Below the pieces are notes generated by a model. That model ran no database searches and was not told the origin of the DNA. It worked only from the letters and a program-made list of their open reading frames with translations. DNA of 64,000 bases. Source: Nitrosopumilus sp. GTDB taxonomy: Archaea > Thermoproteota > Nitrososphaeria > Nitrososphaerales > Nitrosopumilaceae. The DNA lies in assembly GCA_963667665.2 (NCBI GenBank), contig OY763927.2, forward strand, positions 512,001 to 576,000, read 5' to 3'. Within the stretch, counting starts at the first letter, position 1, and every line of letters starts with the position of its first letter. The position numbers and the translations under genes are program-made. Positions 1-64,000 of this stretch are shown here, in pieces.

Positions 1-774
1 CCTGTTCCAATTGTATTGACAAGAATCAAAACAGATTACAAACATACTGGATTTTTAGACAGAGATGCTATTGATATGATATGCAAATATCTTGATCATA
101 GAAAGAAAAAAACAGGGTCAGATATGAGCAATGGGGATGCATTGTTCTTAAATAAAATGAATAAACCTGTATCCCGTTCATGGGTTTTTTGTAAGTTTCG
201 TAACATGGCAGAAAGAGCAGGAATTCAAAAAGTGATAGGCCAAAATATCCGTAAACAATACAAGATGGACTCGCATGAATTACGTGATTTATTAAAATCT
301 ACACTGATTGATTCTGGATGCAGAATAGATGTTGCAGATCATGTCATTGGGCATAAGCCAAAAGATTCCTATGAAAAACAGGCAAAACTATACCCTGAAA
401 CTTTGAGAAAGGAATACTCTAAAGCCTCAAAAAGACTCAACATATTTACAAAATTCACAAGTGTAGTTAATGGAACAGATGATGCAGATGATTTGAGGAT
501 ATCCCTCAAAGACAAACTAGATGAATTAGAAAAAATAAAACAAAGAAGCTTGGATGATGAAGCAGAAAAGATAAAAAATGACAAAATGGCTGAACAAAAT
601 GCAAGGCAAATGTCTCAAATGATGGATATGATAAATGAACTAAAAACTCAGATAAACTCTACAAAAAACAACAAATCAGATGAGTTGGAATTTTGCTGTA
701 TCAAATGCAGTACTATTCACAAGAATCAAAAATGTCCTGTATGTGATTCCAAACTAAAGAGAATTTATGAATAG
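1..774 (+). CDS. Tyrosine recombinase/integrase, C-terminal part (5' truncated by the window), with a coiled coil and C-terminal Zn ribbon
   Basis: HELR (HxxR) motif, VIGH and DSYEK (catalytic H and Y); tail CCIKC...CPVC; frame is open from base 1. Confidence 0.85.
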   Translation, partial: PVPIVLTRIKTDYKHTGFLDRDAIDMICKYLDHRKKKTGSDMSNGDALFLNKMNKPVSRSWVFCKFRNMAERAGIQKVIGQNIRKQYKMDSHELRDLLKSTLIDSGCRIDVADHVIGHKPKDSYEKQAKLYPETLRKEYSKASKRLNIFTKFTSVVNGTDDADDLRISLKDKLDELEKIKQRSLDDEAEKIKNDKMAEQNARQMSQMMDMINELKTQINSTKNNKSDELEFCCIKCSTIHKNQKCPVCDSKLKRIYE

Positions 775-1424
775 AATCAAAACCTCACACAGTTGATACA
801 AACTCAGAACTTTATATAATAAAAATTTACAATAAACCATTAAATTTATGAAAAAAACTCAAAAAAAAAAACAGATTATAATTATTATTTGAAATATTAA
901 AAAATATTGTAAATTAAACACGGATCAGTTTTTATGGATCAATACCGTACTATACATCATGATAACCGTACTTTTTTCAATTGAGGAATTTTTGACTCTG
1001 TTTTAAAAAGATGATCGCATCTTTAAATATAATTTTCATATGGAAATTTTGGCTTTTAATCAAAATGTTCCATTATAGAACTAGTAATGTCTGAAGGGCC
1101 TCGAATACAAATTGCGAAATATGACTCGAAAAGAGGGTTAATCCTCCAAGACCACATCAGACAGTATTGTTATGACACGGTGTGTTATAATTTATGCCAA
1201 TAGCCTGCCAATAGATTTTCAGTTCGTCTTTTATACTAGTATTTCATAATTCAAGATGCGAAATATGAAATTTGAAAAGTGGGGTGTAACACCTGTCAAG
1301 TAAAGGAGATACTGGAATCTCAGGATGGATTAATCAGAATTCAAACCTAATTATTGATAAAATAATTTCTGAGCATCCTGTAGTTTCTTTTCTCAAAGAA
1401 GAAGGATATCCTACCAACAAAAAC

Positions 1425-1685
1425 ATGTTTACCAAATGTGAAATAATCTCATTTTTTGAAGATCCAACAACAATTAGTCCGGAAATTTTCCGCAGAACAA
1501 GAAACGGTGTATCTACTGATAAACTACTAACGGAAATTATTCGTTTGAATTTACCAAAAATAAAACTAGAACTAAAAAACGAGAAAGACAACAAACCAAC
1601 AACTGCATCTGCACAGTTTACTCTACAAACCATAAAAATTATTGATAAAATAATGTCATCTTCAAAGTTCAAAAATAGTTTATAA
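1425..1685 (+). CDS. Hypothetical protein, first gene of a virus-like operon
   Basis: 86 aa ORF, co-oriented with tightly packed downstream ORFs. Confidence 0.5.
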   Translation: MFTKCEIISFFEDPTTISPEIFRRTRNGVSTDKLLTEIIRLNLPKIKLELKNEKDNKPTTASAQFTLQTIKIIDKIMSSSKFKNSL

Positions 1686-1703
1686 TTATCTGAGGAAGGA
1701 ATT

Positions 1704-1892
1704 TTGACAGACAATCAAAAAACGCCAATTACAATGGCGCATCTTATACGTGCAGCCATATGTAGCATTCTAAATAGATTAAATTTTCTAAAAGAAAATC
1801 CTTCCATATATGAGAGAGCAACAACACTACAGTCTTGTGAAAATATTCTAGAAAAAATTTACAAAGAAAAATATATGGGTTCTAAAAAATGA
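1704..1892 (+). CDS. Small hypothetical protein
   Basis: 62 aa ORF preceded by GAGGAAGG; overlaps the next start (ATGA). Confidence 0.55.
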   Translation: MTDNQKTPITMAHLIRAAICSILNRLNFLKENPSIYERATTLQSCENILEKIYKEKYMGSKK

Positions 1893-2158
1893 GCGTTTCA
1901 CAATCGCAACAAACAACCCAGTGTTGCCAAAACAAAAAGGCATACACCATAACATACTCTCAAAAAGACACAGATGACACAATCACATCTGTTTGCATTA
2001 CTTGTTTTAATTTAGAGTTAAAATCAAAAAATTATCCAGACACTCTAATCAAACCTTATCAGAGAAATACCATCAAAATAATCTGCAACTCTTGCAGTAA
2101 CGATGTAACAACATCCGTTGGATGTGATGTATGTGATCCAAAAGGAGGATTATCATAA
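1889..2158 (+). CDS. Cys-rich Zn-binding protein, paralog 1
   Basis: CC...CxxC...CxxC...GCxxC pattern shared with the next ORF. Confidence 0.7.
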   Translation: MSVSQSQQTTQCCQNKKAYTITYSQKDTDDTITSVCITCFNLELKSKNYPDTLIKPYQRNTIKIICNSCSNDVTTSVGCDVCDPKGGLS

Positions 2159-2448
2159 TGAGCCAAACAATTCAAAACAATTCTTTTGATGGAGAACATT
2201 GCTGCGATACAACAAATCCTGATTACTACATTACATACAAAATAAATGATACAATCAGAACAAACGTCATCTGCAAAAATTGTATTACATCACAGGTAGT
2301 CTTTGATGACAAATATGGAAAACTATTCATCTTACAGATAAACATCAAAAAAATAATCTGTATTCATTGCGGGAATGAAGTAACAAAATCCAAAGGATGT
2401 ACTAAATGCAAGACAGTTTTTGTAGAGGGGAAAAACAATGAAACATAA
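2158..2448 (+). CDS. Cys-rich Zn-binding protein, paralog 2
   Basis: CC...YxITY...VICxxC...IKKIICxxCxNEVT...GCxxC; TAATG coupling. Confidence 0.7.
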   Translation: MSQTIQNNSFDGEHCCDTTNPDYYITYKINDTIRTNVICKNCITSQVVFDDKYGKLFILQINIKKIICIHCGNEVTKSKGCTKCKTVFVEGKNNET

Positions 2449-4233: not shown

Positions 4234-4415
4234 TCAAAAACATATGGAAAAAACATTACTGCTTACCTCAAGTTATGTTAATTATAGTTCTCATGATAAC
4301 CATTGCATCTATTTTACATGTTGTCAGTTTGAATGTAATTCATGAACAGGATATCATAGAGGATATTATCATAAACAATGATGATATAAAACAACTTTTT
4401 GAAACACTGATTTGA
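4230..4415 (+). CDS. Small single-TM membrane protein
   Basis: Hydrophobic stretch VMLIIVLMITIASILHVV; T-tract follows. Confidence 0.55.
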   Translation: MIKNIWKKHYCLPQVMLIIVLMITIASILHVVSLNVIHEQDIIEDIIINNDDIKQLFETLI

Positions 4416-4418
4416 TAA

Positions 4419-4436
4419 ACTTTTTTTGTTTTTTTT
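4419..4436 (+). terminator. Oligo-T archaeal-type terminator
   Basis: Two T-runs right after the last gene of the operon. Confidence 0.5.
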
Positions 4437-4534
4437 ACAAAAATACATTATCACCTAGCTAATATTGCCACATATGAAAATCTTCTTTGCAGGGGGCTTT
4501 TGTTGGCCTTTTATAGTAATGGAGTATTGATTAT

Positions 4535-4780
4535 ATGACAACATACTACAAGGTGCTACGCTCCGTGACACCTGCCGATCTCGATACGCGTCCAAGGTTC
4601 GTCGAGGTATTAAAGCTGATCCCATCGCAGGGACATGTGACCTCTGAACTGTTCAGACATCTTGGAAAAAGCCGTGCAAGCAAGGGCATAACGCATGCAT
4701 GCTCACGCGGAATCCTCAAGAGAATCTCGCCGCACGATCAAATATTGGGACTGAATTCCGTAAAATTCTGGCTCACCTAG
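4535..4780 (+). CDS. Small basic protein, possibly wHTH-like
   Basis: 81 aa ORF with TTTATA about 25 bp upstream of the ATG. Confidence 0.45.
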   Translation: MTTYYKVLRSVTPADLDTRPRFVEVLKLIPSQGHVTSELFRHLGKSRASKGITHACSRGILKRISPHDQILGLNSVKFWLT

Positions 4781-5089
4781 CTCAACGAGTCGGGCCACAA
4801 AAACAGCATATCCAAAAACGGTACCAAGTCACTGTATCTGCAGGGCCTCTCAAAGTTCGATGCGGTCTGCCAGCCATTTGATGCCACTTCCATTTCTGCC
4901 TTTGCCACATCCACACAAAACCTGCAAACCATCCAAGATCTGTGCAAATCCTGTCATCCAGGCGGTCTTTGGGTCCATTCACTGTGATTTTTTTGGCAGA
5001 TTCCATGACACTTTTTATTTGACATCTGATGCTGCATATTTTAAAAGAACTGCCAAATATTTCCAGATTTGCGTCATGCGGCCTGATCG

Positions 5090-5230
5090 GTACAGTGTAA
5101 ACGATCATTTATGGTACGATTAAACTTGGACAGAACTAATTTCTGTACAATAGATGACTAGTACAGTGTAAAATAATCCTTTATGGTACAATTAAACTTG
5201 GACAGAACTAATTTCCGTACAACAGAACTA
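5090..5230. repeat. Imperfect 71-bp tandem duplication upstream of the giant gene
   Basis: gtacagtgtaa...tttatggtac.attaaacttggacagaactaatttc.gtacaa starts at both 5090 and 5161. Confidence 0.85.
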
Positions 5231-5350
5231 TAAAGGCAGATATAAATACTTAATGGTATAAATAAGGACAGTGACCTTTAATTACAATTTTAGTGCCCCT
5301 TTTCGATATTTGTCCAGCGATTTGTCCCGCACCGCCGACAGGTACCATCC

Positions 5351-8300
5351 GTGAAGATATTCCTGCTGGTAGCCGTATTTGCCGTGTCGCTCATGGTGAT
5401 TGGGGTGGGGGACGCAGAGGTGCAACACACAGTCAAGCCGGGACAAATAGTTGCATCAGACCCCGCACCGTACCATCTGACCGGTAACACTTGGTCAATT
5501 CCGGACTTGTCTGCGTCACAGTCAGGATACGCGTTTGCGCAGACCCCAGACAGCACGCCCCCGACCTTTGTTTCATCCGAACTTGACACTGCGACAAGGG
5601 TGCTAACGATAACCTTTTCAGAAACAATTGATGCAACAAACGTAGATGCGGCCAAGATACACATAAGGGAGTCAGGCACCTACACGGGCGGCATAACCCT
5701 GACTGCAAACGAGCTTGTCACAACCACAAATGCCAGTACCATATCGTTTACCCTGACTATGCCACATTTAGAAACAGTCAAGGGACTGACCACGCCGGAA
5801 CTGACAGTCGAGCCCGGGGCGGTACGGGACACGTCTGGCAATCTCATCGTCGGTACCTTTGATGTCTCCACTGCCTCTTATGCCGGTAATGGTGAAAGAT
5901 TCTCCGTTTCAGGACAGGAAAACTCACCACAAGGCATGGCATTTTCAAATGACGGCGCCAAGATGTTCGTAGTAGGCTGGTTCGGCGAGGACATAAGCGA
6001 GTACACCCTGTCCACCCCCTTTGATGTCTCCACCGCCTCTTATGCCGGTAATGGTGAAAGATTCTCCGTCTCAGAACAGGACCCAGCACCACGAGGCATG
6101 GCATTTTCAAATGACGGCGCCAAGATGTTCATAGTAGGTGATCATGGAAATGACATAAGCGAATACACCCTGTCCACCCCCTTTGATGTCTCCACTGCCA
6201 CCTTTGCTAATGTCGTCTTCTCCGTCTCAGGACAGGACGAAACCCCAACAGGCATGGCGTTTTCAAATGACGGCACCAAGATGTTCGTAGTAGGCTGGGA
6301 CGCAGATAACATAAACGAATACACCCTGTCCACCCCCTTTGATGTCTCCACTGCCACCTTTGATGATGTCGTCTTCTCCGTCTCGATGCAGGAAACAACC
6401 CCAACAGGCATGGCGTTTTCAAACGACGGCGCCAAGATGTTCGTAGTAGGTACTGTGGGAGATGACATAAACGAGTACACCCTGTCCACCCCCTTTGATG
6501 TCTCCACCGCCTCTTATGCCGGTAATGGTGAAAGATTCTCCGTCTCAGGACAGGAAAGAACCCCAACAGGCATGGCATTTTCAAACAACGGCGCCAAGAT
6601 GTTCGTAATAGGTACTGTGGGAGATGACATAAACGAGTACACGCTAAGCTCCGTCTATCCCATCACGGTAACCAGCCCGCCTGCCGGGGCCTTTGTCACC
6701 ACCTGGAGGACGACTACTGCAGACAAGTCGATAACCCTCCCGATATCAGGATCCGGCATGACTGTCGACTGGGGCGACGGCAACACCACCGCCTCGGGAT
6801 CAGTCAACCACATCTACAATACTGCAGGCGACTATACTATCCAGGTAACCGGCGGCCTGGAAAGGTTCCACCTGAACAATGCCGCCGACGCGTCCAAACT
6901 GGTCTCGCTGGATCAGTGGGGGAACACCACATGGACCACCATGGAGAACGCCTTTTATGGTGCCGACAACATGGTCTACATGGCAACCGACACCCCCGAC
7001 CTCTCCGAAGTGACCAACATGAGGGAGATGTTCAACGAGGCCTCCAACTTCAACGGCAACCTCTCCACCTGGAACGTCTCAAAGGTAACTGACATGAGCT
7101 ACATGTTCGCTGACGCCACCTCCTTCAATGGCACCCTCTCTGGCTGGGACGTCTCGTCGGTCACCGTCATATACAACATGTTCGAGGGAGCCACCTCCTT
7201 CAACCAGGACATCTCCGGATGGAACGTCTCGGGCGTCACCGACATGGACGACATGTTTAAAGGCGCCACCTCCTTCAATGGCACCCTCTCTGGCTGGGAC
7301 GTCTCGGGCGTCACCGACATGGACGAAATGTTTAAAGGCGCCACCTCCTTCAATGGCACCCTCTCTGGCTGGGACGTCTCGTCGGTCACCGTCATATACA
7401 GCATGTTCGAGGGAGCCACCTCCTTCAACCAGGACATCTCTGGCTGGGACGTCTCGTCGGTCACCGTCATACACAGCATGTTCGAGGGAGCCACCTCCTT
7501 CAACCAGGACATCTCCGGATGGGACGTCTCGGGCGTCACCGACATGTACGACATGTTTAAAGGCGCCACCTCCTTCAACCAGGACATCTCCGGATGGGAC
7601 GTCTCAAGTGCCAACAGCATGGAATCCATGTTCTTCGGCGCCTCCTCCTTCAACCAGAACCTGGGCAACTGGTTCATCGTGCTGGATTCCAACACCTTCG
7701 CCGCCGACGTCGACATGCTGCACATATCCACGCAGAATGATTACCTAGACCAGGCCAAGCCCTCCTACACCATCGGCGACACCCAGTTCGTCATAGACCT
7801 GGACCCGGTCATCACCCTGAACTCCTCGGCGACGGTTCCTGATGGTTCCTACCAAGTGACCATCACCGTGGACATGCTCGACTTCGGCCCCGCGACCCAC
7901 TCCCTGAATACGGAGATCCACGTCCAGGTAAACACTCCCCCGACCGCCTTTGTCACCACCTGGAGGACGACTGCTACAGACAAGTCGATAACCCTCCCGA
8001 TATCAGGATCTGACATGACCGTCTACTGGGGCGACGGCAACACCGCCACCGGCGTCTCGGCACCCGTCGATCACACCTACAATACTGCAGGCGACTATAC
8101 TATCCAGGTAACCGGCGGCCTGGAAAGGTTCCACCTGAACAACGACGCCGACGCGTCCAAACTGGTCTCGCTGGATCAGTGGGGCAACACCACATGGACC
8201 ACCATGGAGAACGCCTTTTATGGTGCCAACAACATGGTCTACAACGCAGCCGACTCTCCAGACCTCTCCACAGTCACCGACATGTCCGGCATGTTCGGAG

Positions 8301-11300
8301 ACGCCTCTTCCTTCAACGGCAACATCTCCGGCTGGGATGTCTCAAAGGTGACTGACATGTCCGACATGTTCATCTTCGCCTACGACTTCAACCAGCCCCT
8401 CAACTCCTGGAACGTCTCGTCCGTGAAGAATATGGGCTGGATGTTCAACAGCGCCACCTCCTTCAACCAGACCCTCAACTCATGGGACGTCTCCTCTGTC
8501 GACAACATGGTTCGCATGTTCCGCGGCGCCGACTCCTTCAACCAGCCCCTCAACAACTGGGACGTCTCGAAGGTGACCAGCATGGTCAGCATGTTCTTCG
8601 GTACCTCCTCCTTCAACCAGAACCTCGGGAACTGGTACGTGACGCTGGATCCGGACACCATAGCAGGCACTGGCATACCAGGTGTGGTCGGGACTATATC
8701 GGCACAGAACCAACCGCTCAAAAACCACTCCCCGACATACGTAATTGTAGACGGCTTGGACAAGAACCACTTTGAGATAGCCACTGGAAATCAACTCAAC
8801 ATGACATCCGGCGTCTCTGGAAAGGCCGAGTACAGCGTCAACGTGACTGCCTCCGGCGGGAGTGTCTTTGAGTCCGGTAACAATTGGAGACTGCTGGAGA
8901 TTAAAGTTACAGATCAAACAACTGATACCACACTCCTGGCAGATGCGTTTGTGACCACGTGGAAGACGGCATCGGCAGACCAGAGCATCACCATCAACTT
9001 TGTGGGAGACGACATGAACATCTCCTGGGGCGACGGCGCAACTGAGACGAACCTCTCGGGATCCCAGACCCACACCTACACAGAGGCAGGCAATCACACG
9101 GTCTCTGTGACCGGCGGCCTGACAGGACTCACACTGGACAGGCCTGATTCCTCTGGCTTACCCGGCCCCGTACCCGAGCTTGCCTCGATAGACCAGTGGG
9201 GCGGCATATCCTGGACCAACATGAGTAACGCCTTTACCGGGGCCTCCAACATGACCTACATGGCCACTGACACGCCAGATCTGAGTCTTGTCACCGACAT
9301 GTCCGACATGTTCCGGAGCGCCTACGACTTCAACGGCGACCTCTCCTCATGGGACGTCTCGTCTGTCACCGACATGAGCCGCATGTTCCGTGGCGCCACC
9401 TCCTTCAACGGCGACCTCTCCTCATGGGACGTCTCGTCTGTCACCGACATGTCCAGCATGTTCCGTGGCGCCACCTCCTTCAACGGCGACCTCTCCTCCT
9501 GGGACGTCTCGAAGGTGACCAGCATGGCCACCATGTTCTTCGGTACCTCCTCCTTCAACCAGCCCCTCAACGCCTGGGACGTCTCCTCTGTCACCGCCAT
9601 GGACGACATGTTCGGAAACGCCACCGTCTTTGACCAACCCCTCAACGCCTGGGATGTCTCGTCTGTCACCGACATGACATTCATGTTCTTAGGCGCCTCC
9701 TCCTTCAACCAGCCTCTCAACAACTGGGACGTCTCAAGTGTGACCGACATGAGAAGCATGTTCGCCGGCGCCTCCTCCTTCAACCAGCCCCTCAACTCTT
9801 GGAACGTCTCGTCCGTGACCACCATGTTCCGCATGTTCGCAGGCGCCAGCTCCTTCAACCAGACCCTCGGGAACTGGTACGTGGTGCAGGACCCTCCCGT
9901 CCTGACTGCCAATGCGACGTTTTCCATCAGGGCGCAGAACAGTTACCTGGACGGCCTTGTGTCCACATACTCTATAGATGACACCAGGTTTGTCATGGAC
10001 GACAAGACACTCTCGCTTAACTCTACAAACCTGCCACCTGCAGGCATGTATCCACTGGACATAACTGCTCCTGCCGTACTGGGCGAGCCCAACGCAGACA
10101 CCCACACACGAACCATTACCATCACCGTAAGTGATCCCCCCGCCATGCCGTTTATCACCACATGGAGGACCGACTCTGCCAACCAGACGATCACCATCCC
10201 TGTGGGCGGCTCTACTGCCAGATACAGCATAGACTGGGGCGATAACAGCCCCGCCGAGACGGACATCACTGGTAACAGTACACACACCTATCGTGAGGCG
10301 GACAGCTACACCGTCTCCATATCAGGCGGCCTTGAGAGGATTTACCTTAACGGTCAGCAACCCAACGCAGGCAGGCTGGCATCAATCGAGCAGTGGGGCG
10401 ACACGAGATGGACCACCATGGACAGAGCGTTTGACGGGGCGACCAATATGGTGTACCGCGCAACCGACACGCCGGATCTGTCGGGAGTGACTGACATGGA
10501 CAGCATGTTCTTCGAAACCCACAGCTTCAACGGCGACCTCTCCTCCTGGGACGTCTCGAAGGTGACTGACATGTCCGACATGTTCATCTTCGCCACCTCC
10601 TTCAACGGCAACCTCTCCTCATGGGACGTCTCGGCAGTGACTGACATGTCCAGCATGTTCGATGGCGCCACCTCCTTTGACCAACCCCTCAACGCCTGGG
10701 ATGTATCCTCTGTCACCGCCATGTCCTACATGTTCGCAGGCGCCACCTCCTTCAACCAACCCCTCAACGCCTGGAACGTCTCCTCGGTCACCGACATGTT
10801 CGGCATGTTCAGCGCCGCCTCCTCCTTCAACCAGACCCTCAACTCTTGGGACGTCTCGTCCGTGACCGACATGACCGGCATGTTCCGCGGCGCCTCTTCC
10901 TTCAACGGCAACATCTCCGGCTGGGACGTCTCCTCTGTCACCAACATGAACGGGATGTTCCGGAGCGCCACCTCCTTCAACCAGCCCCTCAACTCTTGGA
11001 ACGTCTCGTCCGTGAACAGCATGAATGGCATGTTCGAAACCACATACTTCAACCAGACCCTCAACTCATGGGACGTCTCGTCCGTGAACGACATGTTCCG
11101 CATGTTCAATGAAGCCTTCTCCTTCAACCAGCCCCTCAACTCCTGGAACGTCTCGTCCGTGAAGAATATGGGTTGGATGTTCAACGACGCCACCTCCTTC
11201 AACCAGCCCCTCAACTCCTGGGATGTCTCGTCCGTGACCGACATGGCTCGCATGTTCAACAGCGCCACCTCCTTCAACCAGCCCCTCAATTCTTGGGACG

Positions 11301-51315: not shown

Positions 51316-51317
51316 TC

Positions 51318-51707: not shown

Positions 51708-52222
51708 TCCTAATGAATATCATAAACGTGAATGCAAAGGCTAAAATATCCGGGTTTGACACTGATGCAATTATTGATGGCATTACTAATGCAGAATACA
51801 GACCAAACGGATTTCCAGCTATTTGTATTGGCAGTGACTCAGGAATCACTATCTCGTTGTTTGATTCAGGCAAGATAAACTCAAAGCGTGCAAAGTCCAC
51901 TGATTCTGCCATACTGGCAATCAATAATTTTGTCAAAACATTAAAAAAACTTGGAATGAAAATATCCATTCTCTCTAAGCCTTCCATATATCTAATTGTA
52001 ACAAATGTATTCTATGAAAAAAGAATAAACATCAAATCCCTCAAGAGTTTACCGGAATTCAAAAAGGAGATAAAACGATTCAGCTCAATCCAACTTGTAT
52101 TTCCTAACAATGTCAATGTTCTGGCATACGAGAATTCATTGAGGGTTTCAGGGAATGACATATCACATATGATGCAGGTGGTAAACAGCCTGAAAAAACA
52201 CACAATTCCTGCGGTGAAATAA
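51704..52222 (+). CDS. tbp: TATA-binding protein homolog, divergent
   Basis: IINVNAKA...AEYRPNGFPAI...SLFDSGKI...AKS; second repeat degenerate. Confidence 0.8.
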   Translation: MILMNIINVNAKAKISGFDTDAIIDGITNAEYRPNGFPAICIGSDSGITISLFDSGKINSKRAKSTDSAILAINNFVKTLKKLGMKISILSKPSIYLIVTNVFYEKRINIKSLKSLPEFKKEIKRFSSIQLVFPNNVNVLAYENSLRVSGNDISHMMQVVNSLKKHTIPAVK

Positions 52223-52228: not shown

Positions 52229-52627
52229 ATGCAACATATGAACATATTTCTATTCACCGGAGTAATTACTGCAACGGCAATTACCCTATTGTTCTCTAGC
52301 GGTCAGTTTGATACAACCAGACTTGCATTTGAGAGTGCCATTACAGCAAAGCAGACAAACGGCATGATATATCTCACATATTCCATTTACAATACCGGTA
52401 CGACAGACATTGTCTTCATTGAAGTTAATGCTGACTGTTGCAGCACATCCCCCAATACCCCTACAGACTATCCAATTTTTCCAAGAAGCGATACCGGGCA
52501 GATATCTACCATGCTACAACTTCATGGAACCATATTGAATTACGGTGATGCTTTTTTGGTAACATTTCAGGTGGAGGACAATCTTGGAAATACCAAAACC
52601 AGTATAGAGCCAGTCAGGATTGGTTAA
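52229..52627 (+). CDS. Archaeal pilin-like / membrane-anchored beta-sandwich protein
   Basis: N-terminal hydrophobic helix, YSIYNTGTTDI, YGDAFLVTFQV. Confidence 0.5.
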   Translation: MQHMNIFLFTGVITATAITLLFSSGQFDTTRLAFESAITAKQTNGMIYLTYSIYNTGTTDIVFIEVNADCCSTSPNTPTDYPIFPRSDTGQISTMLQLHGTILNYGDAFLVTFQVEDNLGNTKTSIEPVRIG

Positions 52628-53255: not shown

Positions 53256-55145
53256 ATGTCTTCATTTCACTCTAGAATTTCAAAAAATTCCCCTTTAATA
53301 CAAAAACTATTCTACATTACAGTGAAAACAAAGCAGATAAAGTCATTCAAACTGGACCCATTTAATCTTGAATTTGCATTAGTCTCTACAGATGTTGCAG
53401 GAATATCAGAAAAAGAGCTATCCATATTATCATTTCTCTCATTCTTTGACAAGTTTACAGAGCCATTCTCCATTGATGTAGTGCGAGACTATGAGGATTT
53501 GCTATTCTACAAAACCATAAGGAGTTGCAGATTTGATAATGTAATAATTAACACAAGCCAGGAAAACCCTGAAAACATCCTACCTGGCGTATCATCTGCA
53601 TCTACCAGAAAGTGGGAAATAACAGAGGAGCATCCTGATTATTGTATATTAAAAGATGGATTATACTGTAAAACATACACGTTATCCATGCTTCATGATG
53701 ACTTGCCACCTGGATGGATTTACGGGTTGTATCAATATTCTGATGCAATAAGAATATTTGTAGAGCCTATACCTGACGGAAAGACACAATCAACAATTGC
53801 AAACCACAAGTCAGCTGCTGCCACAATGTCATCAGCCACTGGCATGAACTCGACTGATAATATCTCAATAATAAAAGAGTTGGTCCTAAACAAGAAAAAC
53901 CAGAAACTGTTCTTTACTAGAATAAACATTGTACTACTTGCAGCGGATGTCTCATCATTGCGCTCTAGAGAAAAAGAGTTTCTACAAAATACAAAAAACA
54001 TTCCAGGTATTGAGACTGCAAAACATGTCCAGAAAAAATTACTCCACGGAACAGAAGGTCAGAGAATTTTAATGGTGAGCAGTGCGTTTCACTGTCTTAT
54101 TCCGTTTGTAACATCAGAATTGTACGAGGAAGGCGGCATACTGTTGGGGGAAAATACAATGACAGGAAATCCAATCAGATGGAACATCAATAACCGTATC
54201 AATAGAAACACTGTACTTGCATCTACTTCTGGATCTGGCAAGACAACACTTGCAATGATGATAATTCATGCCTTTGAAAAGATGCATCATAACGCGTTTA
54301 TCTTTGGAGTTGATCCTGAAAACGAGTATGCAGTACTGGGTCAGAACATGGGATTTACCTGTGTGGATTATTCCTTTGGAAAAAAGATGGGTCTTGATTT
54401 ATTCAAGATGGTCCCAGATACTTTTGCTGCAACTGAAACATTGTGCAATGCGCTAAACGTTCCAGAAGTGGACAGAATCATTCCAAATATGGCTGCAACC
54501 ACCCTTGCAAATCTTGACATCTCGCACAGAAGCTTTACAAAATTCTATGAGATAATGGAAAAAAACGAAACAGACAATCACGCCCTAAAATATTTTAAGA
54601 TGTTGACTATTCCTCCATATTCTGACTTTTTTGAAGGGGAACCACCAAAGTCTAACAAGATAATTCTATCGCTAAAAAACATCGGCAGTGCTGGTGGAAC
54701 AGTACACAGACTAATCACACAGATTGCACTGTCTTATGCAATGGGCAGGGCATTGCTAATGCCCAAAATAATTCCGAAACTATTCATGCTAGATGAGGTG
54801 TGGATGTTACTACAACACGACTCTCTTGGTAATTATATTCAGAACTTGTCAAGACGTGGAAGAAAATACAACATCAATCTCATGATGGCAACTCAGAACA
54901 TTGAGGATATGACAGATAATGTATCTGCTCGAAACGTCCTGGTGAACAGTGACACTGTTATGTTTCTCAGGCAAAGTGAGGCTACTGCAAAATCACTCAG
55001 AGAACACTTTGTACTCTCTGATAATGCCGTCTCCTATATGATGAGATTAAACAGGGGACAGGCACTGATAAAATACGGAAATAGCATGGTTCCTGTAAAT
55101 ATCTTACCTGATGATGAGCAGTTAAAACTGTTCAGACCGAGATGA
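53256..55145 (+). CDS. VirB4-like conjugation ATPase
   Basis: STSGSGKT Walker A, VDPENEY, MLDEVW Walker B, RRGRKY, ATQN, LNRGQAL. Confidence 0.85.
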   Translation: MSSFHSRISKNSPLIQKLFYITVKTKQIKSFKLDPFNLEFALVSTDVAGISEKELSILSFLSFFDKFTEPFSIDVVRDYEDLLFYKTIRSCRFDNVIINTSQENPENILPGVSSASTRKWEITEEHPDYCILKDGLYCKTYTLSMLHDDLPPGWIYGLYQYSDAIRIFVEPIPDGKTQSTIANHKSAAATMSSATGMNSTDNISIIKELVLNKKNQKLFFTRINIVLLAADVSSLRSREKEFLQNTKNIPGIETAKHVQKKLLHGTEGQRILMVSSAFHCLIPFVTSELYEEGGILLGENTMTGNPIRWNINNRINRNTVLASTSGSGKTTLAMMIIHAFEKMHHNAFIFGVDPENEYAVLGQNMGFTCVDYSFGKKMGLDLFKMVPDTFAATETLCNALNVPEVDRIIPNMAATTLANLDISHRSFTKFYEIMEKNETDNHALKYFKMLTIPPYSDFFEGEPPKSNKIILSLKNIGSAGGTVHRLITQIALSYAMGRALLMPKIIPKLFMLDEVWMLLQHDSLGNYIQNLSRRGRKYNINLMMATQNIEDMTDNVSARNVLVNSDTVMFLRQSEATAKSLREHFVLSDNAVSYMMRLNRGQALIKYGNSMVPVNILPDDEQLKLFRPR

Positions 55146-55900: not shown

Positions 55901-56914
55901 ATGAGAAAGATTGTATTCATATTTGTGTTATTATTAATTGGTATTGCTCCATTAATCATTTCATCATACTCTGATTATGTCTCCCCAAAAAAACAGCTAG
56001 AATCTGGAGTATTGCCTGAGGATATACAATGTAGAGAGAATAAAGTACTTGTGATCAGAGATAATGGAAATCCAGCTTGTGTTAAAGAGGAAACTGCACA
56101 AAAAACAGGGTGGGATATCATTGCAACAGAGTTTGCACAAAAAATAGTTCCATCAAACCAAGAAGTTCAGATTAATGATAAAGTAGAAAATAATTTGATA
56201 GAACATGAATCTACAGTAGATAATGAGACAAACAATAATAATGAACAAGAATTCATAGTATTAGATTTTGGCTCTGATGTAGAGTATGTAGATGACGGTA
56301 GAGAACAATATAGAGCTAAATTACAGAAATCCCCTGCACCAGGGGATATGTTTGGCTATATTGATGAAGCTCTGGAAAAACATCCAGTAGATGCTGCTGG
56401 CCTGTTTAGAACACCAGCAATATCACATGAAAGATACTCTGTTAATCCAGGAGTTGGATTTTATCCACAAGACTGGATGCCATCACATGTTCCAGATGGA
56501 TATAGATTGCTGTATATTGATAATAGGCATTATGAAGAATTTGGTACTTATTGGATGAGAATATATTTTGTACCAAACACGTTTGAGTTAACGAAAGACA
56601 TCACAAACCTTGATTTAGATATGTCTCAAGGATTCAAAATATTTGTTGAGAAAAAAACACACCCATTAGATGAAATTGAAGATGAAATTGAGAATTATCG
56701 AGAACGTATAGAATCTGATTATGGATATGTAGGTAGATTCTTAGACTTGGAACGTGATGGAAAAACAGTTTGGGCATCAGAGACACAATCTGATTACAAT
56801 CACTATCATGCAACACTTAACTATAACTTTGATGAATATACCATAGTAGGAGTATCATCAAATTATCATACTCTAGAGGAATTACAACCAATATTTGATA
56901 GTATAATGAAATGA
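55901..56914 (+). CDS. Secreted acidic protein with a thaumarchaeal SPxKQ...C...PACVK domain
   Basis: Signal peptide; SPKKQLESGVLPEDIQCRENKVLVIRDNGNPACVK; TTTATATA upstream. Confidence 0.75.
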   Translation: MRKIVFIFVLLLIGIAPLIISSYSDYVSPKKQLESGVLPEDIQCRENKVLVIRDNGNPACVKEETAQKTGWDIIATEFAQKIVPSNQEVQINDKVENNLIEHESTVDNETNNNNEQEFIVLDFGSDVEYVDDGREQYRAKLQKSPAPGDMFGYIDEALEKHPVDAAGLFRTPAISHERYSVNPGVGFYPQDWMPSHVPDGYRLLYIDNRHYEEFGTYWMRIYFVPNTFELTKDITNLDLDMSQGFKIFVEKKTHPLDEIEDEIENYRERIESDYGYVGRFLDLERDGKTVWASETQSDYNHYHATLNYNFDEYTIVGVSSNYHTLEELQPIFDSIMK

Positions 56915-56928
56915 AATACATCCCCAAC

Positions 56929-57400
56929 TTATCCTAAAACTCTCCAGTACATCATAATTGATGCCAAATACACAAACCCAAGATAATTATCACAGTTCTT
57001 CTCATATCTGATTCTTGTTCTATGAAATCCATTCTTCAACCATGCAAAGAATCTCTCAACAACAAACCTTGTCTTGTTGTAATTGTTCTGCATGTTATTT
57101 GGTACGATGAATTTGGAATTATTCCTGTATGGAATGCAGCATCTGATAGAATGATTTCTCAGATAATTCCTGATGTATTTTGCATCATAGCCCTTGTCTG
57201 CATACACTGATACGATCTCTTCTATCATAGAATCATCTACAAAATCTGAAATTGATTCCATGACATCGATAAATTTCGTACTATCATGTTGATTTGCAGG
57301 ACTGCATACAATTGATATTGGCAATCCATTACTATCTACGGCAACATGTATTTTTGTACCTAGAATCTTCTTGAAACCATCATATCCAGTTACGTTGCCC
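56929..57400 (-). CDS. IS5 transposase OrfB (DDE), reached by -1 frameshift
   Basis: GYDGFKKILGTKIHVAVD...ADKGYD...RFVVERFFAWL. Confidence 0.9.
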
Positions 57401-57722
57401 CTTTTTTATTGGAAATTGATGATGAATCAACTGATATCTTTTGCAGATTAATCTTGTTTTGTTTGTAAGCTGATTTCATTATTCCAGAAAGAATCTTTTT
57501 CCATACTCCTTTTTGCTGCCAGTCTTGTAATCGTAGATGTGTAGTTGATTTGGAACCATACTTTTCTGGTAATTCTTCCCATCTGCATCCAACAGTTAGA
57601 ACAAATAGAATTCCATTAATTGTTGTTCTATCATCACATCTTGGTCTGCCTGTTCTTGCAGGTTTTGGTAAATGTGGTATAATTGATTTCCACTGTTTGT
57701 CTGTTAGTTCTTTATGAATCAT
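57390..57722 (-). CDS. IS5 transposase OrfA
   Basis: LTDKQW...GRPR.DDR...GCRW..LP..YG; ends at the AAAAAAGGGG slippery site (~57398-57407). Confidence 0.9.
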   Translation of the reverse strand: MIHKELTDKQWKSIIPHLPKPARTGRPRCDDRTTINGILFVLTVGCRWEELPEKYGSKSTTHLRLQDWQQKGVWKKILSGIMKSAYKQNKINLQKISVDSSSISNKKGAT

Positions 57723-57772
57723 AGAAATGATTTGATAGATGTTATTGTTAGATCTATACTATCATCAAATGT

Positions 57773-58573
57773 TTACAAAATGATCTGTTTTAGGATGAGT
57801 TGGGTATCATTTTTGATATCTGATATCAGTTTTGGAATCAAGGCACCACCTCCTGCACAAACTACTGGGATTCCGGGATAGTCAATTACGACTTTTTCCA
57901 GAGAATCTGAAATGTTTGCGGCAAGGATTTTTCTTGCCTCATCGAGTTGCGGGGTGTTCTTTGAGAACAGTTTTTTATCCACATAACCTGATTTAGAAGA
58001 CGTAATGGATCTTGTAATGTCGCCAACACCATGCAAAAGTGTTTGGCCATATGCTATTGTATCGTGAGTTACAGCCATTATCTCAGTTGTACCCTGTCCT
58101 ATATGACACACTATTCCATCTTCTAACCCTTCATGATCAAGGGTTGCCTTTGCCTGAAACATCACACCAAAGAACTTTGGTGCAAATCTATCTTGAACTA
58201 CATTCTTGATTTTTTGGACGTAATCTTTTGCATTGTATGGAATGCCTGCAACGATTACACATTCTGAATAGTTTTGTGGACCGCCAGGCAATGCATCTTT
58301 TTGCAATACTATGACCTTCTCTAGTGCATGTTTTACCAACTCCATATAATCAGTAATGGATGTTGGTGCTCCCCTATACACTGGAGTCTTTAACACCATT
58401 GATTTTACTGACTCTTGTTTTGCTGCTTGCTCCCCGACAAGAACAGTTTTTTTTGATTCCAAGTCCATGCTTTTGCCTCTTGCAATTATTGATGGGAATG
58501 TAAATGTGCCATGTATGGTGGCAACTTTTACCAAACCCGTTCCAATGTCAAGACCGATGCAATTTTGTTTCAT
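57773..58573 (-). pseudogene. ParM/MreB-like actin-fold ATPase truncated by the IS5
   Basis: IGLDIGTGLVK, HIGQGTTE, CAGGGA; last ~9 codons are IS sequence. Confidence 0.85.
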
Positions 58574-58893: not shown

Positions 58894-58963
58894 TAGAGGG
58901 CTATGATGAGACAGGCGTTGATCTGACACCAATATGATGACAGGCTTCTGTCTGAGCCCTCTA
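58894..58963 (+). ncRNA. Box C/D methylation-guide sRNA
   Basis: Terminal stem tagagggc/gccctcta; C ATGATGA 58903, D' CTGA 58923, C' ATGATGA 58934, D CTGA 58952; 13- and 11-nt guides; T-tract downstream. Confidence 0.85.
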
Positions 58964-59020
58964 CAAATTTTTTGTATCAATGCTGTTAAAAATGTTAGCA
59001 CAGTCAAAGGTTTTGTCAAA

Positions 59021-60766: not shown

Positions 60767-61459
60767 ATGGCAAAACAATTTATCAAAAGAACACTCATGG
60801 CAATAGTATTTACCATGTTGATTGTCATTGTAGCATCCCTTACATATCAGTATGTGGTTCCGATGGTACTTTCGATGGATACATCAAATGTGTCAGACGG
60901 AATAAACATTGGAAAAGGAATGTTGTACAATGCAAAAGAGCAGGTTATGAATGTCATGGGACAAAATGAAAAGAACTCTCAGGGAACACAAACTGATACT
61001 GCAAGTCAAGATGTAGAATTGTGGTACCAGAACAAAACAGTTGAAAAATCTCAAGGTACACAGACTAGTACAGCAAGTCAAGATGCAATACCATATGGTA
61101 CAGCACTTGGAGGCAAAGTCACCAAAATCGTAGACGGTGATACTCTAGATATTGATGGTACAAGAATCAGACTTGCGCTAGTCAATACACCAGAAAGAGA
61201 AGAAACAGGATATGCAGAAGCTACAGAATTTACAAGATTACACTGTCCAGTTGGTAGTACAGCAATGTATGATATGGATGATGGACAGAGAGATGGTTCT
61301 TACGGCAGAGTCATCGCAAAGGTGTGGTGCTTTGGATATCCAGTGGAGACACCAGACACATCATTGAATGCAATGCTGGTTAATTCAGGACATGCAGAAA
61401 TATTTCACAGATTCTGTAATACCAGTGAGTTTAGCAGTGATGAATGGGCAAACTGTTAG
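60767..61459 (+). CDS. Membrane-anchored thermonuclease (SNase) family protein
   Basis: N-terminal TM; KIVDGDTL, RIRLALVNTPE, YGRVIA, LNAMLVNSGHA. Confidence 0.9.
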   Translation: MAKQFIKRTLMAIVFTMLIVIVASLTYQYVVPMVLSMDTSNVSDGINIGKGMLYNAKEQVMNVMGQNEKNSQGTQTDTASQDVELWYQNKTVEKSQGTQTSTASQDAIPYGTALGGKVTKIVDGDTLDIDGTRIRLALVNTPEREETGYAEATEFTRLHCPVGSTAMYDMDDGQRDGSYGRVIAKVWCFGYPVETPDTSLNAMLVNSGHAEIFHRFCNTSEFSSDEWANC

Positions 61460-62246: not shown

Positions 62247-62834
62247 ATGGTCCAACAACTACAATACAAAAACAAGGTTCTGGAAATTAGCCAGGATGAA
62301 GACCCAGAATCCCCAAGAGAATGGGATAACACTGGAACAATGGTCTGCAAACATACCCAATACACACTGGGAGATGTACAGACACTTCTCACCTCATATG
62401 ATGAATACCTGGAGTCAAAAGGACTTGCACCAGAAGACATCGCAGTGATGTTGCCTTTGTATCTTCTTGATCACAGTGGCATCAGTATGTCATGCGGAGA
62501 GCGTGTCTATCCATATGATGACCCATGGGATTCATCAGCAGTTGGATTCATCTATGTGACAAAAGAAAAGATCAGAAAGGAATGGAATGTCAAGAAAATA
62601 TCCAAAGTCATCATAGGACATGTTACAGAAATGCTAGAAGCAGAAGTGGCAACATATGACCAATACCTCAGAGGAGATGTATACACATTTGTTCTGTACA
62701 CAAAACATACATGCAGTCTCAATGAGATTCATCTGGAAGTAATAGATAGCTGTTCTGGTTTTTACGGAGATCATGAAGAATCAGGACTGACAGATAACAT
62801 TGAGAACTTTGCAAAGTTTGAGGCAACACAATAG
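62247..62834 (+). CDS. Acidic hypothetical protein of a family seen in phages and ICEs
   Basis: DEDPESPREWDN.GTMVC, LPLYLLDHSGISMS, WDS..VGFIY, EVATYDQYLRG; AGGAGG precedes the ATG at 62247. Confidence 0.7.
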   Translation: MVQQLQYKNKVLEISQDEDPESPREWDNTGTMVCKHTQYTLGDVQTLLTSYDEYLESKGLAPEDIAVMLPLYLLDHSGISMSCGERVYPYDDPWDSSAVGFIYVTKEKIRKEWNVKKISKVIIGHVTEMLEAEVATYDQYLRGDVYTFVLYTKHTCSLNEIHLEVIDSCSGFYGDHEESGLTDNIENFAKFEATQ

Positions 62835-62836
62835 GA

Positions 62837-63268
62837 ATGTCTACACAAAATACAATTCCTGCATTATACCAGACCGATGGCATTCCATTTGATGAGAAAC
62901 TAATTCATCAGATATGGATTATTCCATCAATCAACTTTGTTTGGTGTGTGGCAGAACTAGACATTAAGACAAAAGAGGCATTCGGATATGCAAATCTGAA
63001 TGATGATGACATGGCAGAATGGGGCTATATTGATATCGTAGATATTGAGAAAAATGGAGCCAAACTAATATCCTCGCAAGCCATGTCGTTTAAGGAAGTA
63101 CTAGATATAGTACGACCCAAAAACGGATGTCCAGAATGTGGTTCTGATCAGTACAAATTTCAGAGCATCAAAAGAGGAGATCCTACTCTAAGTGATGACA
63201 CCTTTGAGCTGTGGATTTGCAGAAACTGCAACTATCAGCCATTCACAAATATCAGAGGACTGGTCTAA
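62837..63268 (+). CDS. DUF2958-like protein fused to a C-terminal Zn ribbon
   Basis: IPALYQTD...W.VAELD...AFGYANL...EWGY; CPEC...CRNC. Confidence 0.65.
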   Translation: MSTQNTIPALYQTDGIPFDEKLIHQIWIIPSINFVWCVAELDIKTKEAFGYANLNDDDMAEWGYIDIVDIEKNGAKLISSQAMSFKEVLDIVRPKNGCPECGSDQYKFQSIKRGDPTLSDDTFELWICRNCNYQPFTNIRGLV

Positions 63269-63269
63269 A

Positions 63270-63506
63270 ATGACATCCATTTCAGTCCTAACCCTGGACA
63301 GTGACGAGATCAAAGGACATCTAGAATGCAATGAAAGGAGAGTACATCAAATCATGGGAATGGCAAAACAAGGAAAATTTGCAGATATCATCATGGATTC
63401 TTTTTGGGAAACCATTGATGTATGTAATGATATCCTTGACTGTGAGGATGAATCTGGAAAAACATTCTATGAGAAACTAGGCCGAGAGTTGGAGGATGCA
63501 AAATAA
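63270..63506 (+). CDS. Small acidic hypothetical protein
   Basis: 78 aa ORF coupled to both neighbours. Confidence 0.55.
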   Translation: MTSISVLTLDSDEIKGHLECNERRVHQIMGMAKQGKFADIIMDSFWETIDVCNDILDCEDESGKTFYEKLGRELEDAK

Positions 63507-63933
63507 TGTCCAAATGGAGCATTACCCTCTCACGAGAAGCTGGAATATACACAACAGAGGAGATACCATGTGTGTAGGAACAGATCTTCTAGTACATGTA
63601 TTTGAGACGTTTGCGGCATACCATACACCACAGAAAACATTCAGACGTCTTTACTGTGAATCAGGACAAGCTGCAAAAAAGGCATACAGATACGCAAACA
63701 ACGACACAGAACAAAACCTTGATGAGATAATTCCAAAATGTAGTGACTGCCAAAAACCCAGAATGAAGACAAGTACCATAGTTCTAGTCTTTGAGGAACT
63801 CACAAAAATCAAAGAACCAGAACTGCTCAAAGAGATGTATGTCAATATTGGTGGTCCGTCAAGAAATGCATACCTAGTATGCAACAAGAAAACACAACGT
63901 ATAATTCAGAAACTAGAATTGTACAAAAAGTGA
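63496..63933 (+). CDS. Hypothetical protein with Cys motifs
   Basis: 145 aa ORF with GGAGG upstream. Confidence 0.55.
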   Translation: MQNNVQMEHYPLTRSWNIHNRGDTMCVGTDLLVHVFETFAAYHTPQKTFRRLYCESGQAAKKAYRYANNDTEQNLDEIIPKCSDCQKPRMKTSTIVLVFEELTKIKEPELLKEMYVNIGGPSRNAYLVCNKKTQRIIQKLELYKK

Positions 63934-64000
63934 AAGAACAATCACTCTAAAAAAACAACTATTAGGGAATTCCCCTGATGATTCAGTGATATCTCAAATG

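Follow-up and report, generated by a model that had tools for sequence, protein, structure and literature searches.

A probable integrative and conjugative element with its own TATA-binding protein gene in a Nitrosopumilus chromosome

The 64,000-nucleotide stretch of DNA analysed here, referred to throughout as the window, covers positions 512,001 to 576,000 of contig OY763927.2 of Nitrosopumilus sp. (assembly GCA_963667665.2; G000:C1:512001-576000 in our numbering). With a probability of roughly 80%, it represents most of an integrated mobile element, 91.6 kb long, of the thaumarchaeal integrative and conjugative element (ICE) type. This element, or island, occupies G000:C1:511044-602680, corresponding to -956 to 90680 in window coordinates; the window begins 0.96 kb inside its left end and reaches to 64.96 kb (~70% of the island), with a further 26.7 kb lying to the right. 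A preliminary description, prepared from the letters of the window alone, had proposed part of an ICE or a megaplasmid; the former is borne out by empty integration sites in relatives and by a 13-bp direct repeat, and the latter is rejected. The element is a Nitrosopumilaceae variant that carries a TATA-binding protein (TBP) gene in its transfer gene cluster, lacks VirD4 in this copy, and contains a C/D-box small RNA (sRNA) gene and a captured adhesin cassette.

The genome (G000) is a two-contig assembly with a completeness of 99.97%, and its main contig, C1, comprises 1,884,960 bases at 34.4% GC (guanine plus cytosine). Because the window lies inside this contig, it is chromosomal, and the megaplasmid reading was rejected because the island, too, sits inside the 1.885-Mb chromosome contig, with conserved chromosomal genes on both sides. 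Attachment (att) sites, which the preliminary description had proposed to seek in the flanking contig, are found as a 13-bp direct repeat, TGCCCTAATTAAC, bounding the island at both ends. Exactly two copies of this 13-mer exist in the 1.89-Mb genome, at 511044 and 602668 and in the same orientation, the attL copy lying 956 nt to the left of window base 1. No internal copy with up to two mismatches was detected within the island (~1.8 expected per 92 kb; 36 genome-wide), which rules out a tandem array marked by internal att copies.

A DNA search with the sequence to the left of the integrase gene gave matches in four of five same-genus genomes, all of them ending at C1:511060-511066. Comparison of 40 kb around each of these four sites with G000 revealed that in G011, G009, G008, and G006 the distance from the left flank to the sequence beginning at C1:602668-602688 in G000 is within ~35-280 bases. 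The left flank is a conserved gene adjoining ilvD, the right flank opens with a HIT-family gene, and the target is intergenic. The empty sites of G006, G008, and G011 each hold one near-identical copy of the repeat, and that of G009 holds a more diverged copy, as against two copies in G000. Because the island is absent between the same flanking genes in all four relatives that hold the left flank, it is not syntenic core chromosome, which disposes of one alternative raised in the preliminary description; the insertion is therefore also younger than the species splits. At the empty site of G011 (L016+L017, 19996-20150), 157 extra bases were observed that match G000:C1:446322-446476 at 78% and represent a small repeated element at the integration spot.

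Profile searches covered 94 open reading frames (ORFs) of the island in Pfam, 64 of them in the window, as well as ten key proteins in NCBIfam and 10 unannotated island ORFs in PHROGs; matches other than those of HicA/HicB, the insertion sequences (IS), and Pfam domains fall well under curated whole-protein cut-offs, marking divergent homologues. The first gene is that of a tyrosine integrase, as had been proposed. Its 556-aa ORF begins 896 nt to the left of the window and is full length, its C-terminal 252 aa being encoded in the window at 16-774 (within 1..774, +), and the full ORF matches PF00589 (1.6e-9) and contains the HxxR, GH, and Y motifs together with a C-terminal Cys4 ribbon. On the evidence of the junctions, this predicted left-end recombinase integrated the element into an intergenic attB with duplication of a 13-bp core. 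The composition of the island differs from that of its host, with a median GC content at third codon positions (GC3) of 0.28 in 35 island ORFs versus 0.19 in 1000 host ORFs (Mann-Whitney p 2e-12). Ribosomal or other housekeeping operons are missing among the 64 window ORFs by Pfam, in agreement with the preliminary description.

The left junction is not an assembly chimera, another alternative raised at the outset, because contigs of three studies bridge attL. These contigs belong to X1 (7092-9362), X15 (7092-9393), and X16 (7550-9387) and span the repeat (8044-8056 of a 16-kb stretch) with pieces of 1.8-2.3 kb carrying 0-3 differences; no loose end at attL is found among the contigs listed. 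In the comparison of coverage with the host chromosome, likewise suggested earlier, the element-side word depth is not above that of the flank in X1, X15, or X16, although this is a poor measure that yields no copy number. In X1, the word depth amounts to 12-17 on the element side and to ~43 on the flank, with more differences on the former. X1 contigs that cover the left-end genes (L137:10681-13350; window ~1680-4350) were also noted to have one-third of the flank depth and many more differences, which suggests strain variants of the element in the X1 sample.

Transfer functions are represented foremost by a VirB4/CedB-like secretion ATPase (53256..55145, +), recognized as VirB4-like from the start. 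It matches the TraG P-loop (6e-12) and AAA_10 families of Pfam and TraC of NCBIfam; in the latter database, the VirB4-like conjugal ATPase (CD1110 family) scores 2e-40 and DNA_import_CedB 3.6e-16. Walker A (SGSGKT) and Walker B (LDEVW) are both intact, and the scores, which lie under the curated cut-offs, are those of a divergent homologue of the VirB4/TrbE-like ATPases. This protein was used to trace relatives of the element. Matches (E <= 0.001) were obtained in three of 12 other same-genus genomes (52%, 25%, and a marginal 17-bit match) and in one of eight other genera sampled from the order. When one genome per species was scanned, 155 confirmed VirB4 relatives were obtained, from which 78 loci were kept. 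Ten of these are close (46-77% identity) and come from Nitrosopumilus, Nitrosarchaeum, and Nitrosopumilaceae records, names with which the Nitrosopumilaceae-like host proposed in the preliminary description is consistent; the more distant loci come from Nitrosotalea, Nitrosotenuis, Nitrosocaldus, and others.

One of the empty-site genomes, G008, contains a colinear relative elsewhere in its chromosome, with an integrase (59% identity), an R2K protein (67%), a VirB6-like protein (48%), VirB4 (51%), TBP (35%), an actin-like protein (58%), a nuclease (49%), and three small left-end genes. By tblastn, this relative has no adhesin, GINS, or XPD-like gene. Its ends were not found in 132 kb, a region with many IS copies and no core flank.

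Upstream of the ATPase gene lies that of a 560-aa VirB6/TrbL-like polytopic membrane protein (47931..49613, +) with ~8-10 hydrophobic segments, a candidate mating-pore component. The earlier assignment to VirB6 stands in part: no Pfam or NCBIfam profile matches this protein, and its hydrophobic segments, its linkage to VirB4, and its ESM Atlas neighbours argue for it. In 21 of 45 loci (L044-L088), a candidate of this type is encoded no more than 10 kb from VirB4, and the protein accompanies VirB4 in 17 distant loci according to local iterative searches; the ESM Atlas neighbours carry TrbL_4/DUF8208 (0.92-0.95) and serve as a lead only. The gene is preceded by that of a 207-aa protein with two hydrophobic segments (47311..47934, +), which is present in G008a, G020a, G020b, L045, and 14 more VirB4 loci. 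The small partner most widely kept beside VirB4 is a 161-aa helical membrane protein (51222..51707, +), detected by jackhmmer in nine of the ten close loci and in 22 distant VirB4 loci. AlphaFold2 predicts an all-helical fold (predicted local distance difference test, pLDDT, 86) for which Foldseek found no match in the PDB at E <= 0.001 (best 3.5) and a wide VIA-align search returned only generic helical bundles (best Z 7.4); that this protein is VirB2/VirB3-like is only a guess.

The start of the next gene overlaps the stop of that for the 161-aa protein and encodes a divergent two-repeat TBP (51704..52222, +), as had been supposed in the preliminary description. It matches the TBP families of Pfam (1.7e-9) and NCBIfam (2.7e-13); the Pfam match covers repeat 1 only, at 37.8 bits versus a cut-off of 22.9, and the NCBIfam TBP models all score far under their cut-offs. 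The AlphaFold2 model displays two tandem alpha/beta repeats in the saddle fold of a TBP (pLDDT 95.2, predicted TM-score 0.86), albeit from an 11-row alignment that included two canonical-type TBPs, which may have aided the model. In a Foldseek search with this model, the top match was 1mp9, the TBP of Sulfolobus acidocaldarius (E 1e-12, TM 0.83), and the rows down to rank 44 were all TBP chains or TBP-containing complexes (TM 0.74-0.86, ~175 columns). Aromatic residues stand in the alignment at what we take to be the positions of the DNA-kinking Phe pairs. The host itself encodes three canonical TBPs, in each of which Pfam recognizes two repeats (90-103 bits), and the island protein has no tblastn match to any of the three at 1e-6.

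The setting of this gene is conserved. Together with the same two small membrane-protein neighbours and near VirB4, it recurs in seven of the ten close loci and in G008; one of these neighbours is the 161-aa protein, and the other is a 132-aa protein with an N-terminal hydrophobic segment that adjoins the TBP-like gene (52229..52627, +) and accompanies it in seven of the ten close loci and in G008a. No element-type TBP was found within 10 kb of the distant VirB4 loci. A word-index protein search placed the relatives of the protein in only five other clusters, at 52-63% identity. A family profile containing two canonical-type TBPs matched 200 of 201 genomes; these matches are host TBPs and give no count of element TBPs. 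The genomes sampled for it included G112, G113, and G097, from which no conclusion is drawn.

The second basal transcription factor of the island, a divergent TFB/TFIIB homologue (34996..35865, +), is supported by the TFIIB subfamily of NCBIfam (1.5e-19) and by TFIIB of Pfam (4.9e-7), in line with its first annotation. It is 21-24% identical to the TFBs of the host, of which there are seven canonical ones, and TFB-like ORFs are also present in the G008 and G020 loci. A ParB-like protein is encoded nearby (33422..34156, +), with matches to the ParB-like partition family of PHROGs (8.5e-9) and to further ParB-like families. Its gene lies 840 nt upstream of that for TFB, three genes upstream with two small ORFs between, giving the order ParB then TFB and not TFB then ParB.

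The VirB4/VirB6-like genes could alternatively specify Ced/Ted-like DNA import or protein secretion on a genomic island in place of conjugative export. We regard this as improbable. It draws on the DNA_import_CedB match of the ATPase (3.6e-16) and on the lack of VirD4 and relaxase, which resembles the Ced/Ted make-up of VirB4, VirB6, and VirB2 only, as outlined in the main text of Beltran et al. (2023; PMC9905601). However, the best family of the ATPase is the conjugal one (2e-40), and the genes reside within an integrase-bounded, patchy element that has partition and TFB/ParB genes, as described ICEs do, whereas Ced and Ted are given there as chromosomal systems conserved within their orders (PMC9905601). 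An integrated virus or virus-plasmid hybrid is far less probable still. Integrase, TFB, and a primase-helicase remnant are also found in archaeal proviruses, a provirus-derived element encoding TFIIB is mentioned in the main text of Abby et al. (2018; PMC5797428), and the ORF at 62172-62834 matches a PHROG of unknown function (9e-19). Against these stands the lack of any capsid, portal, terminase, or tail family in the 94 island ORFs by Pfam or in the 10 unannotated ones by PHROGs. The preliminary description had seen no relaxase, coupling protein, MCM, or capsid gene in the window; this holds, and relaxase, MCM, and capsid genes are equally lacking in the right-hand 26.7 kb of the island.

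Several observations weigh against the ICE reading. No VirD4/TraG coupling ATPase was found by Pfam or NCBIfam in the scanned island ORFs; the only Walker-A proteins of the island outside the adhesin block are the XPD-like helicase and the VirB4-like ATPase, and there is therefore neither a VirD4-type coupling protein nor an MCM. The pilin-like genes reported earlier were not confirmed, only small membrane or secreted proteins being present, of which the conserved one lacks a fold match. No intact replication initiator exists on the island. Neither an excised circle nor an empty site was seen in the contigs examined, which cannot reveal rare forms. In addition, Krupovic et al. (2019; PMC6563490) speak of “potential ICEs” in their main text, which implies that transfer of thaumarchaeal ICEs has never been shown experimentally. 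Signs of decay belong on the same side. An IS5-family insertion sequence with DUF4096 and DDE_Tnp_1 ORFs by Pfam (56912..57802, -), present in five genomic copies of 99.4-99.8% identity, replaces the last 25-30 residues of an actin-fold, ParM/MreB-like ATPase (57773..58573, -), including a motif kept in four homologues. Furthermore, the right 24 kb of the island form a mosaic in which several pieces match other chromosomal sites at 94-100% identity, and the island may therefore have gained material by accretion once it had integrated.

The actin-like assignment, made already in the preliminary description, has a mixed record: the Pfam match (Actin, 6e-6) reaches 25.5 bits versus a cut-off of 27, with weak FtsA/MreB matches besides, and the protein is conserved in four related loci, its homologues in L049, L047, and G008 (two copies) measuring 279-369 aa. 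The part of the island beyond the right edge of the window contains the remnant of a D5_N/P4-type primase-helicase, whose Walker A is degenerate and whose ORF stops early, and a second IS. Judging from the IS5 in the actin-like gene, the truncated primase-helicase, and the two IS, this copy is partly decayed; it may have retained the ability to excise and yet be compromised in autonomous maintenance or transfer.

The same features allow for a former ICE that is now a fixed, decaying genomic island, whose adhesin, methyltransferases, and TFB/TBP serve the host. This history is possible, but we consider it doubtful. The truncated actin-like gene, the primase-helicase remnant, the second IS, the missing VirD4, and the mosaic right arm fit it, as does, for what so poor a measure is worth, an element depth no higher than that of the flank in X1, X15, and X16. 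An immobilised remnant is harder to reconcile with two perfect 13-bp repeats, with a full-length integrase ORF that has its catalytic motifs, with the intact Walker motifs of VirB4, and with a site that is empty in all four relatives, the insertion being younger than the species splits.

With the backbone genes of the putative ICE identified, we infer their roles, and mobility beyond the original integration, as follows. Excision would proceed through integrase-mediated recombination between attL and attR. The transfer set would comprise the VirB4/CedB-like ATPase, the VirB6/TrbL-like channel, and small membrane proteins, without VirD4 or relaxase, and the element would move as double-stranded DNA through this apparatus, a route already suggested for Sulfolobus plasmids and for other thaumarchaeal ICEs. 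Maintenance would fall to the actin-like ATPase, two ParB-like proteins, two HicAB pairs, a MazE-like protein, and an Eco57I-type methyltransferase, and the short GINS, the XPD-like helicase, the R2K ATP-grasp protein, and the primase-helicase remnant may be accessories of DNA metabolism. The element would further bring its own TFB and TBP, the C/D-box sRNA, and a tRNA-like gene, the TFB/TBP pair possibly directing the host RNA polymerase to element promoters.

The most conspicuous insert in the island is a 25.5-kb adhesin cassette of 55% GC (4390..29940, +) with DUF285, He_PIG, Big_9, PKD, and Cadherin-like matches in Pfam. The GC content of the window is ~31-35% at 1-5 kb, ~51-57% at 6-28 kb, and ~30-42% beyond 30 kb. 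The main ORF of the cassette (5351-15532) encodes 3393 aa of DUF285 (BspA-type leucine-rich repeat), PKD, and immunoglobulin-like (Ig) domains, with 19 DUF285 stretches and an N-terminal hydrophobic segment, and shorter DUF285/Ig ORFs follow to 28823. Its GC3 is 0.75, as against medians of 0.19 in the host and 0.28 in the island backbone. Paralogues of the cassette occupy at least eight other chromosomal sites and are up to 97% identical, the similarity extending from window 4383-4397 to 29939 and the edges being 95-98% identical to other chromosomal loci; none of the related element loci sampled contains a homologue of the adhesin. On these sequence grounds, the adhesin block is a nested 25.5-kb copy of a cassette that belongs to a multi-copy family of the host and is not part of the element backbone, which therefore measures ~66 kb.

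Beyond the island, 14 blocks of >45% GC were noted in this 34% GC genome, including those at 1-7, 167-186, 246-268, 277-289, 888-899, and 1817-1869 kb. The cassette edges (window 4383-4771 and 28976-29192) are also 84% and 76% like the flanks of a 538-aa integrase paralogue at G000:C1:657474-659566 (657.7-659.1 kb), and the cassette family may have its own recombinase-linked mobility.

An association with an animal, which the preliminary description had derived from the adhesin, is retained in part: the adhesin came into the element as a nested copy from a chromosomal family and is no backbone gene, and data labelled as sponge-derived do contain the region. Specifically, the word share of the attL stretch was 0.89, 0.65, 0.55, and 0.46 in four sponge-metagenome-labelled runs of one study, and 0.92-0.95 in five runs of two organisms from two further studies.

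The RNA genes of the island include a C/D-box sRNA gene (58894..58964, +; boxed core 58903-58955), which had been noticed at the outset. A motif scan identified C, D', C', and D boxes, a 7-bp terminal stem, and guides of 13 and 11 nt; the boxes agree with a consensus that we take to be C RUGAUGA and D' CUGA with a spacing of ~12 nt. This is the only strict-pattern match in 1.88 Mb, and 20 of 20 shuffles gave 0 matches; Rfam detected no C/D RNA in the window. Related sRNAs were found at L049:18689-18759, L048:20765-20832(-), and L038:16044-16110(-), with the same boxes and stem, one compensatory pair in the stem (C-G to G-C in L038), and entirely different guides. A covariance model reached L059 (34.9 bits) beyond its four training sequences, along with generic C/D-like matches in the host chromosome at 36.9 and 29.1 bits. 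The best runs of the guides on the rRNA region are no better than those of shuffled guides, and those of the window guides on tRNAs are 8-9 nt long. One guide of the L049 sRNA was seen to form a 12-nt run (G-U allowed) with the host tRNA-Phe; as a rough estimate, ~0.2 chance matches are expected, and this run is not relied on.

Two tRNA-like genes had also been proposed, of which one holds up. A 72-nt gene with the anticodon AAG (Leu) at 47066..47137 (+) was called by ARAGORN and scores 39.2 bits in Rfam; it lacks the long variable arm of a canonical tRNA-Leu, having a 4-5-nt variable region and 72 nt versus the 86-88 nt of host tRNA-Leu, and it was not found in 10 related loci or in the G008 element. 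The other, at 42913..42986 (-), is a weak tRNA-like stretch under the Rfam gathering threshold (25.8 versus 29 bits, E 0.47). A derivation of these genes as remnants of att duplication was rejected, as they show no similarity to any host tRNA. According to ARAGORN, the chromosome has no tRNA gene across ~350 kb (G000:C1:207223-559066), the far end of this interval being the odd tRNA-like gene of the island.

The remaining genes of the window comprise DNA-metabolism accessories, toxin-antitoxin pairs, and cargo. The short GINS-like protein (115 aa; 37587..37934, +) and the DinG-like helicase of the preliminary description are both confirmed by profile matches. The former matches Sld5 of Pfam (1.4e-6) and Gins23 of NCBIfam (1.9e-13) and belongs to a small family of 14 short proteins, one 63%-identical copy lying ~85 kb from VirB4 in G223; canonical Gins23 proteins (178-182 aa) are 29-32% identical to it in five of five genomes. 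The latter is an XPD/DinG-family SF2 helicase (39421..41091, +) that matches Helicase_C_2 (5e-19), ResIII, and DEAD_2 in Pfam and YoaA/DinG in NCBIfam. It has two host paralogues at 40% identity, and an 84% copy with one in-frame TAG (G220:C1:1207426-1209087) lies ~370 kb from the G220 VirB4 locus. Thus, the GINS-like and XPD-like genes are variable cargo and not demonstrably family core.

An R2K-clade ATP-grasp protein (36395..37156, +; R2K_3 of Pfam, 9e-8) is 67% identical to the copy in the G008 element. The HicB-HicA pair annotated earlier (38950..39398, +) is supported by Pfam (HicB_lk_antitox 6e-10, HicA_toxin 1.6e-16), and another HicA, likewise accompanied by a partner, is encoded farther right on the island, outside the window. 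An Eco57I/MmeI-type N6-adenine DNA methyltransferase, resembling type IIG restriction-modification enzymes, is encoded at 43476..45563 (-; Eco57I 2e-14, N6_Mtase 2e-13), and a membrane-anchored staphylococcal-nuclease-like protein (60767..61459, +; SNase 1.8e-5) has 49% identity to its counterpart in G008. Pfam further identified, as cargo, an S-adenosylmethionine (SAM) methyltransferase (31148-31837, +) and a protein with an S-adenosylhomocysteine-hydrolase-type NAD domain and a cupin domain (31839-33341, +). Overall, most of the genes listed in the preliminary description are real. Further right, the island contains a three-domain GARS-like (purD-like) ATP-grasp protein (equivalent to 64600-65952; L024:600-1952; 25% identity to the host copy), a MazE-like protein, a matrixin-like metalloprotease, and an ArsR-type regulator, and it ends, just before attR, with a ParB-like gene (parB_part 6e-15).

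The genome as a whole is highly mobile. It contains 16 matches to the phage-integrase family, 11 of them above the cut-off, and its paralogues of the large integrase include one of 567 aa at 921 kb (52% identity) and one of 538 aa at 658 kb (37%). The region at G000:C1:1815-1870 kb resembles a large inverted duplication with high-GC adhesin blocks inside, and shows equal-scoring integrase matches at 1837351/1847351, tRNA-Cys at 1836797/1848283, and IS5 copies at 1815.6/1869.9 kb.

Taken further, these data invite a tentative picture that we consider unlikely as it stands, in which the element represents a Nitrosopumilaceae-specific ICE family with its own basal transcription kit. A divergent TBP hard-wired in the transfer operon and a divergent TFB elsewhere would reprogram the host RNA polymerase onto element promoters in the manner of phage sigma factors, or the TBP might act as an IHF-like DNA-bending factor for integration or transfer. 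The family would in addition carry a C/D guide RNA with fast-changing guides, and by capturing a sponge-symbiosis adhesin cassette it could spread host-interaction genes among sponge archaea. If TFB and TBP are functional, the element would provide a tractable case of a mobile element that brings its own archaeal promoter-recognition factors. The exact ends, the empty site, and the relatives, in at least ten nearly complete Nitrosopumilus/Nitrosarchaeum chromosomes, therefore offer a clean entry point to a conjugative-type family in marine and sponge-associated ammonia oxidisers.

The closest known systems are the thaumarchaeal ICEs. The preliminary description had held such elements to be poorly described in this lineage, a view outdated by the main text of Krupovic et al. 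(2019; PMC6563490), which reports ten potential thaumarchaeal ICEs whose median size is 64 kb; two such elements were treated by Abby et al. (2018; PMC5797428), who suggested that their TFIIB homologues alter promoter specificity. The named examples are NCAV2-E1/E2, NitIsl-E1 to E3, NitEve-E6, NitGar-E3, NitVie-E3, and NitNCS1-E3 (PMC6563490, PMC5797428), and the main texts of the two papers name none in Nitrosopumilus or Nitrosarchaeum. According to the 2019 survey, most described ICEs encode VirB4 and VirD4, with VirB6, VirB3, TadC, and pilins, none has a relaxase, and all have TFIIB, usually just upstream of ParB, with diverse replication modules (PMC6563490). The present island shares with them a tyrosine recombinase for site-specific integration, short direct repeats, the VirB4-like ATPase, a candidate VirB6-like membrane protein, the divergent TFIIB near a ParB-like gene, the lack of a relaxase, and variable replication, defence, and cargo genes. 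Against their median of 64 kb, its backbone measures ~66 kb and the island with the cassette 91.6 kb. Unlike most of them, it has no detectable VirD4/TraG, and unlike most surveyed elements, its target is intergenic and not a tRNA gene, a choice made by a minority of 15 of 68 in the 2019 survey (PMC6563490).

Compared with described ICEs, the island has TBP, a short GINS, an XPD-like helicase, and a C/D-box sRNA as extras. The name stems of the described elements presumably refer to Nitrosocaldus, Nitrososphaera, and further genera other than those of the present relatives. The terms TBP, TATA, and GINS have 0 occurrences in the main text of PMC6563490, as do TATA and GINS in that of PMC5797428, although the supplements of both papers may list such genes. 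New relative to those main texts are the TBP conserved inside the transfer gene cluster, the element-encoded C/D-box sRNA with variable guides, and the sponge-symbiosis-linked DUF285 adhesin cassette inside the element.

The adhesin has its own parallel in the eukaryote-like proteins of sponge symbionts. Sponge metagenomes are reported to be enriched in eukaryote-like domains that include DUF285, and two thaumarchaeal symbionts possess these repeats (Haber et al., 2021; PMC7848895, main text); the same repeats occur here in a thaumarchaeon represented in sponge-labelled runs. In the present case, one copy of the family lies inside a mobile element, whereas mobile elements, integrases, and conjugation have 0 occurrences in the main text of that study (PMC7848895).

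With the Sulfolobus conjugative plasmids (pNOB8/pKEF9 type) and the Ced and Ted systems, which Beltran et al. (2023; PMC9905601) treat in their main text, the island has in common a minimal set of a VirB4-like ATPase and a candidate VirB6-like channel, without relaxase, and presumed transfer of double-stranded DNA. Ced and Ted are, however, chromosomal import systems that are structurally defined by a VirB2-like pilin (PMC9905601), and none was identified here. No sequence similarity to the Sulfolobus plasmids or to Ced/Ted is detectable beyond the ATPase. Haloarchaeal megaplasmids, such as the replicons of Halobacterium NRC-1, provide a further precedent, as extra, near-canonical paralogues of TBP and TFB are encoded there on large accessory replicons. 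In contrast to that case, the TBP of the Nitrosopumilus element is highly divergent and embedded among transfer genes.

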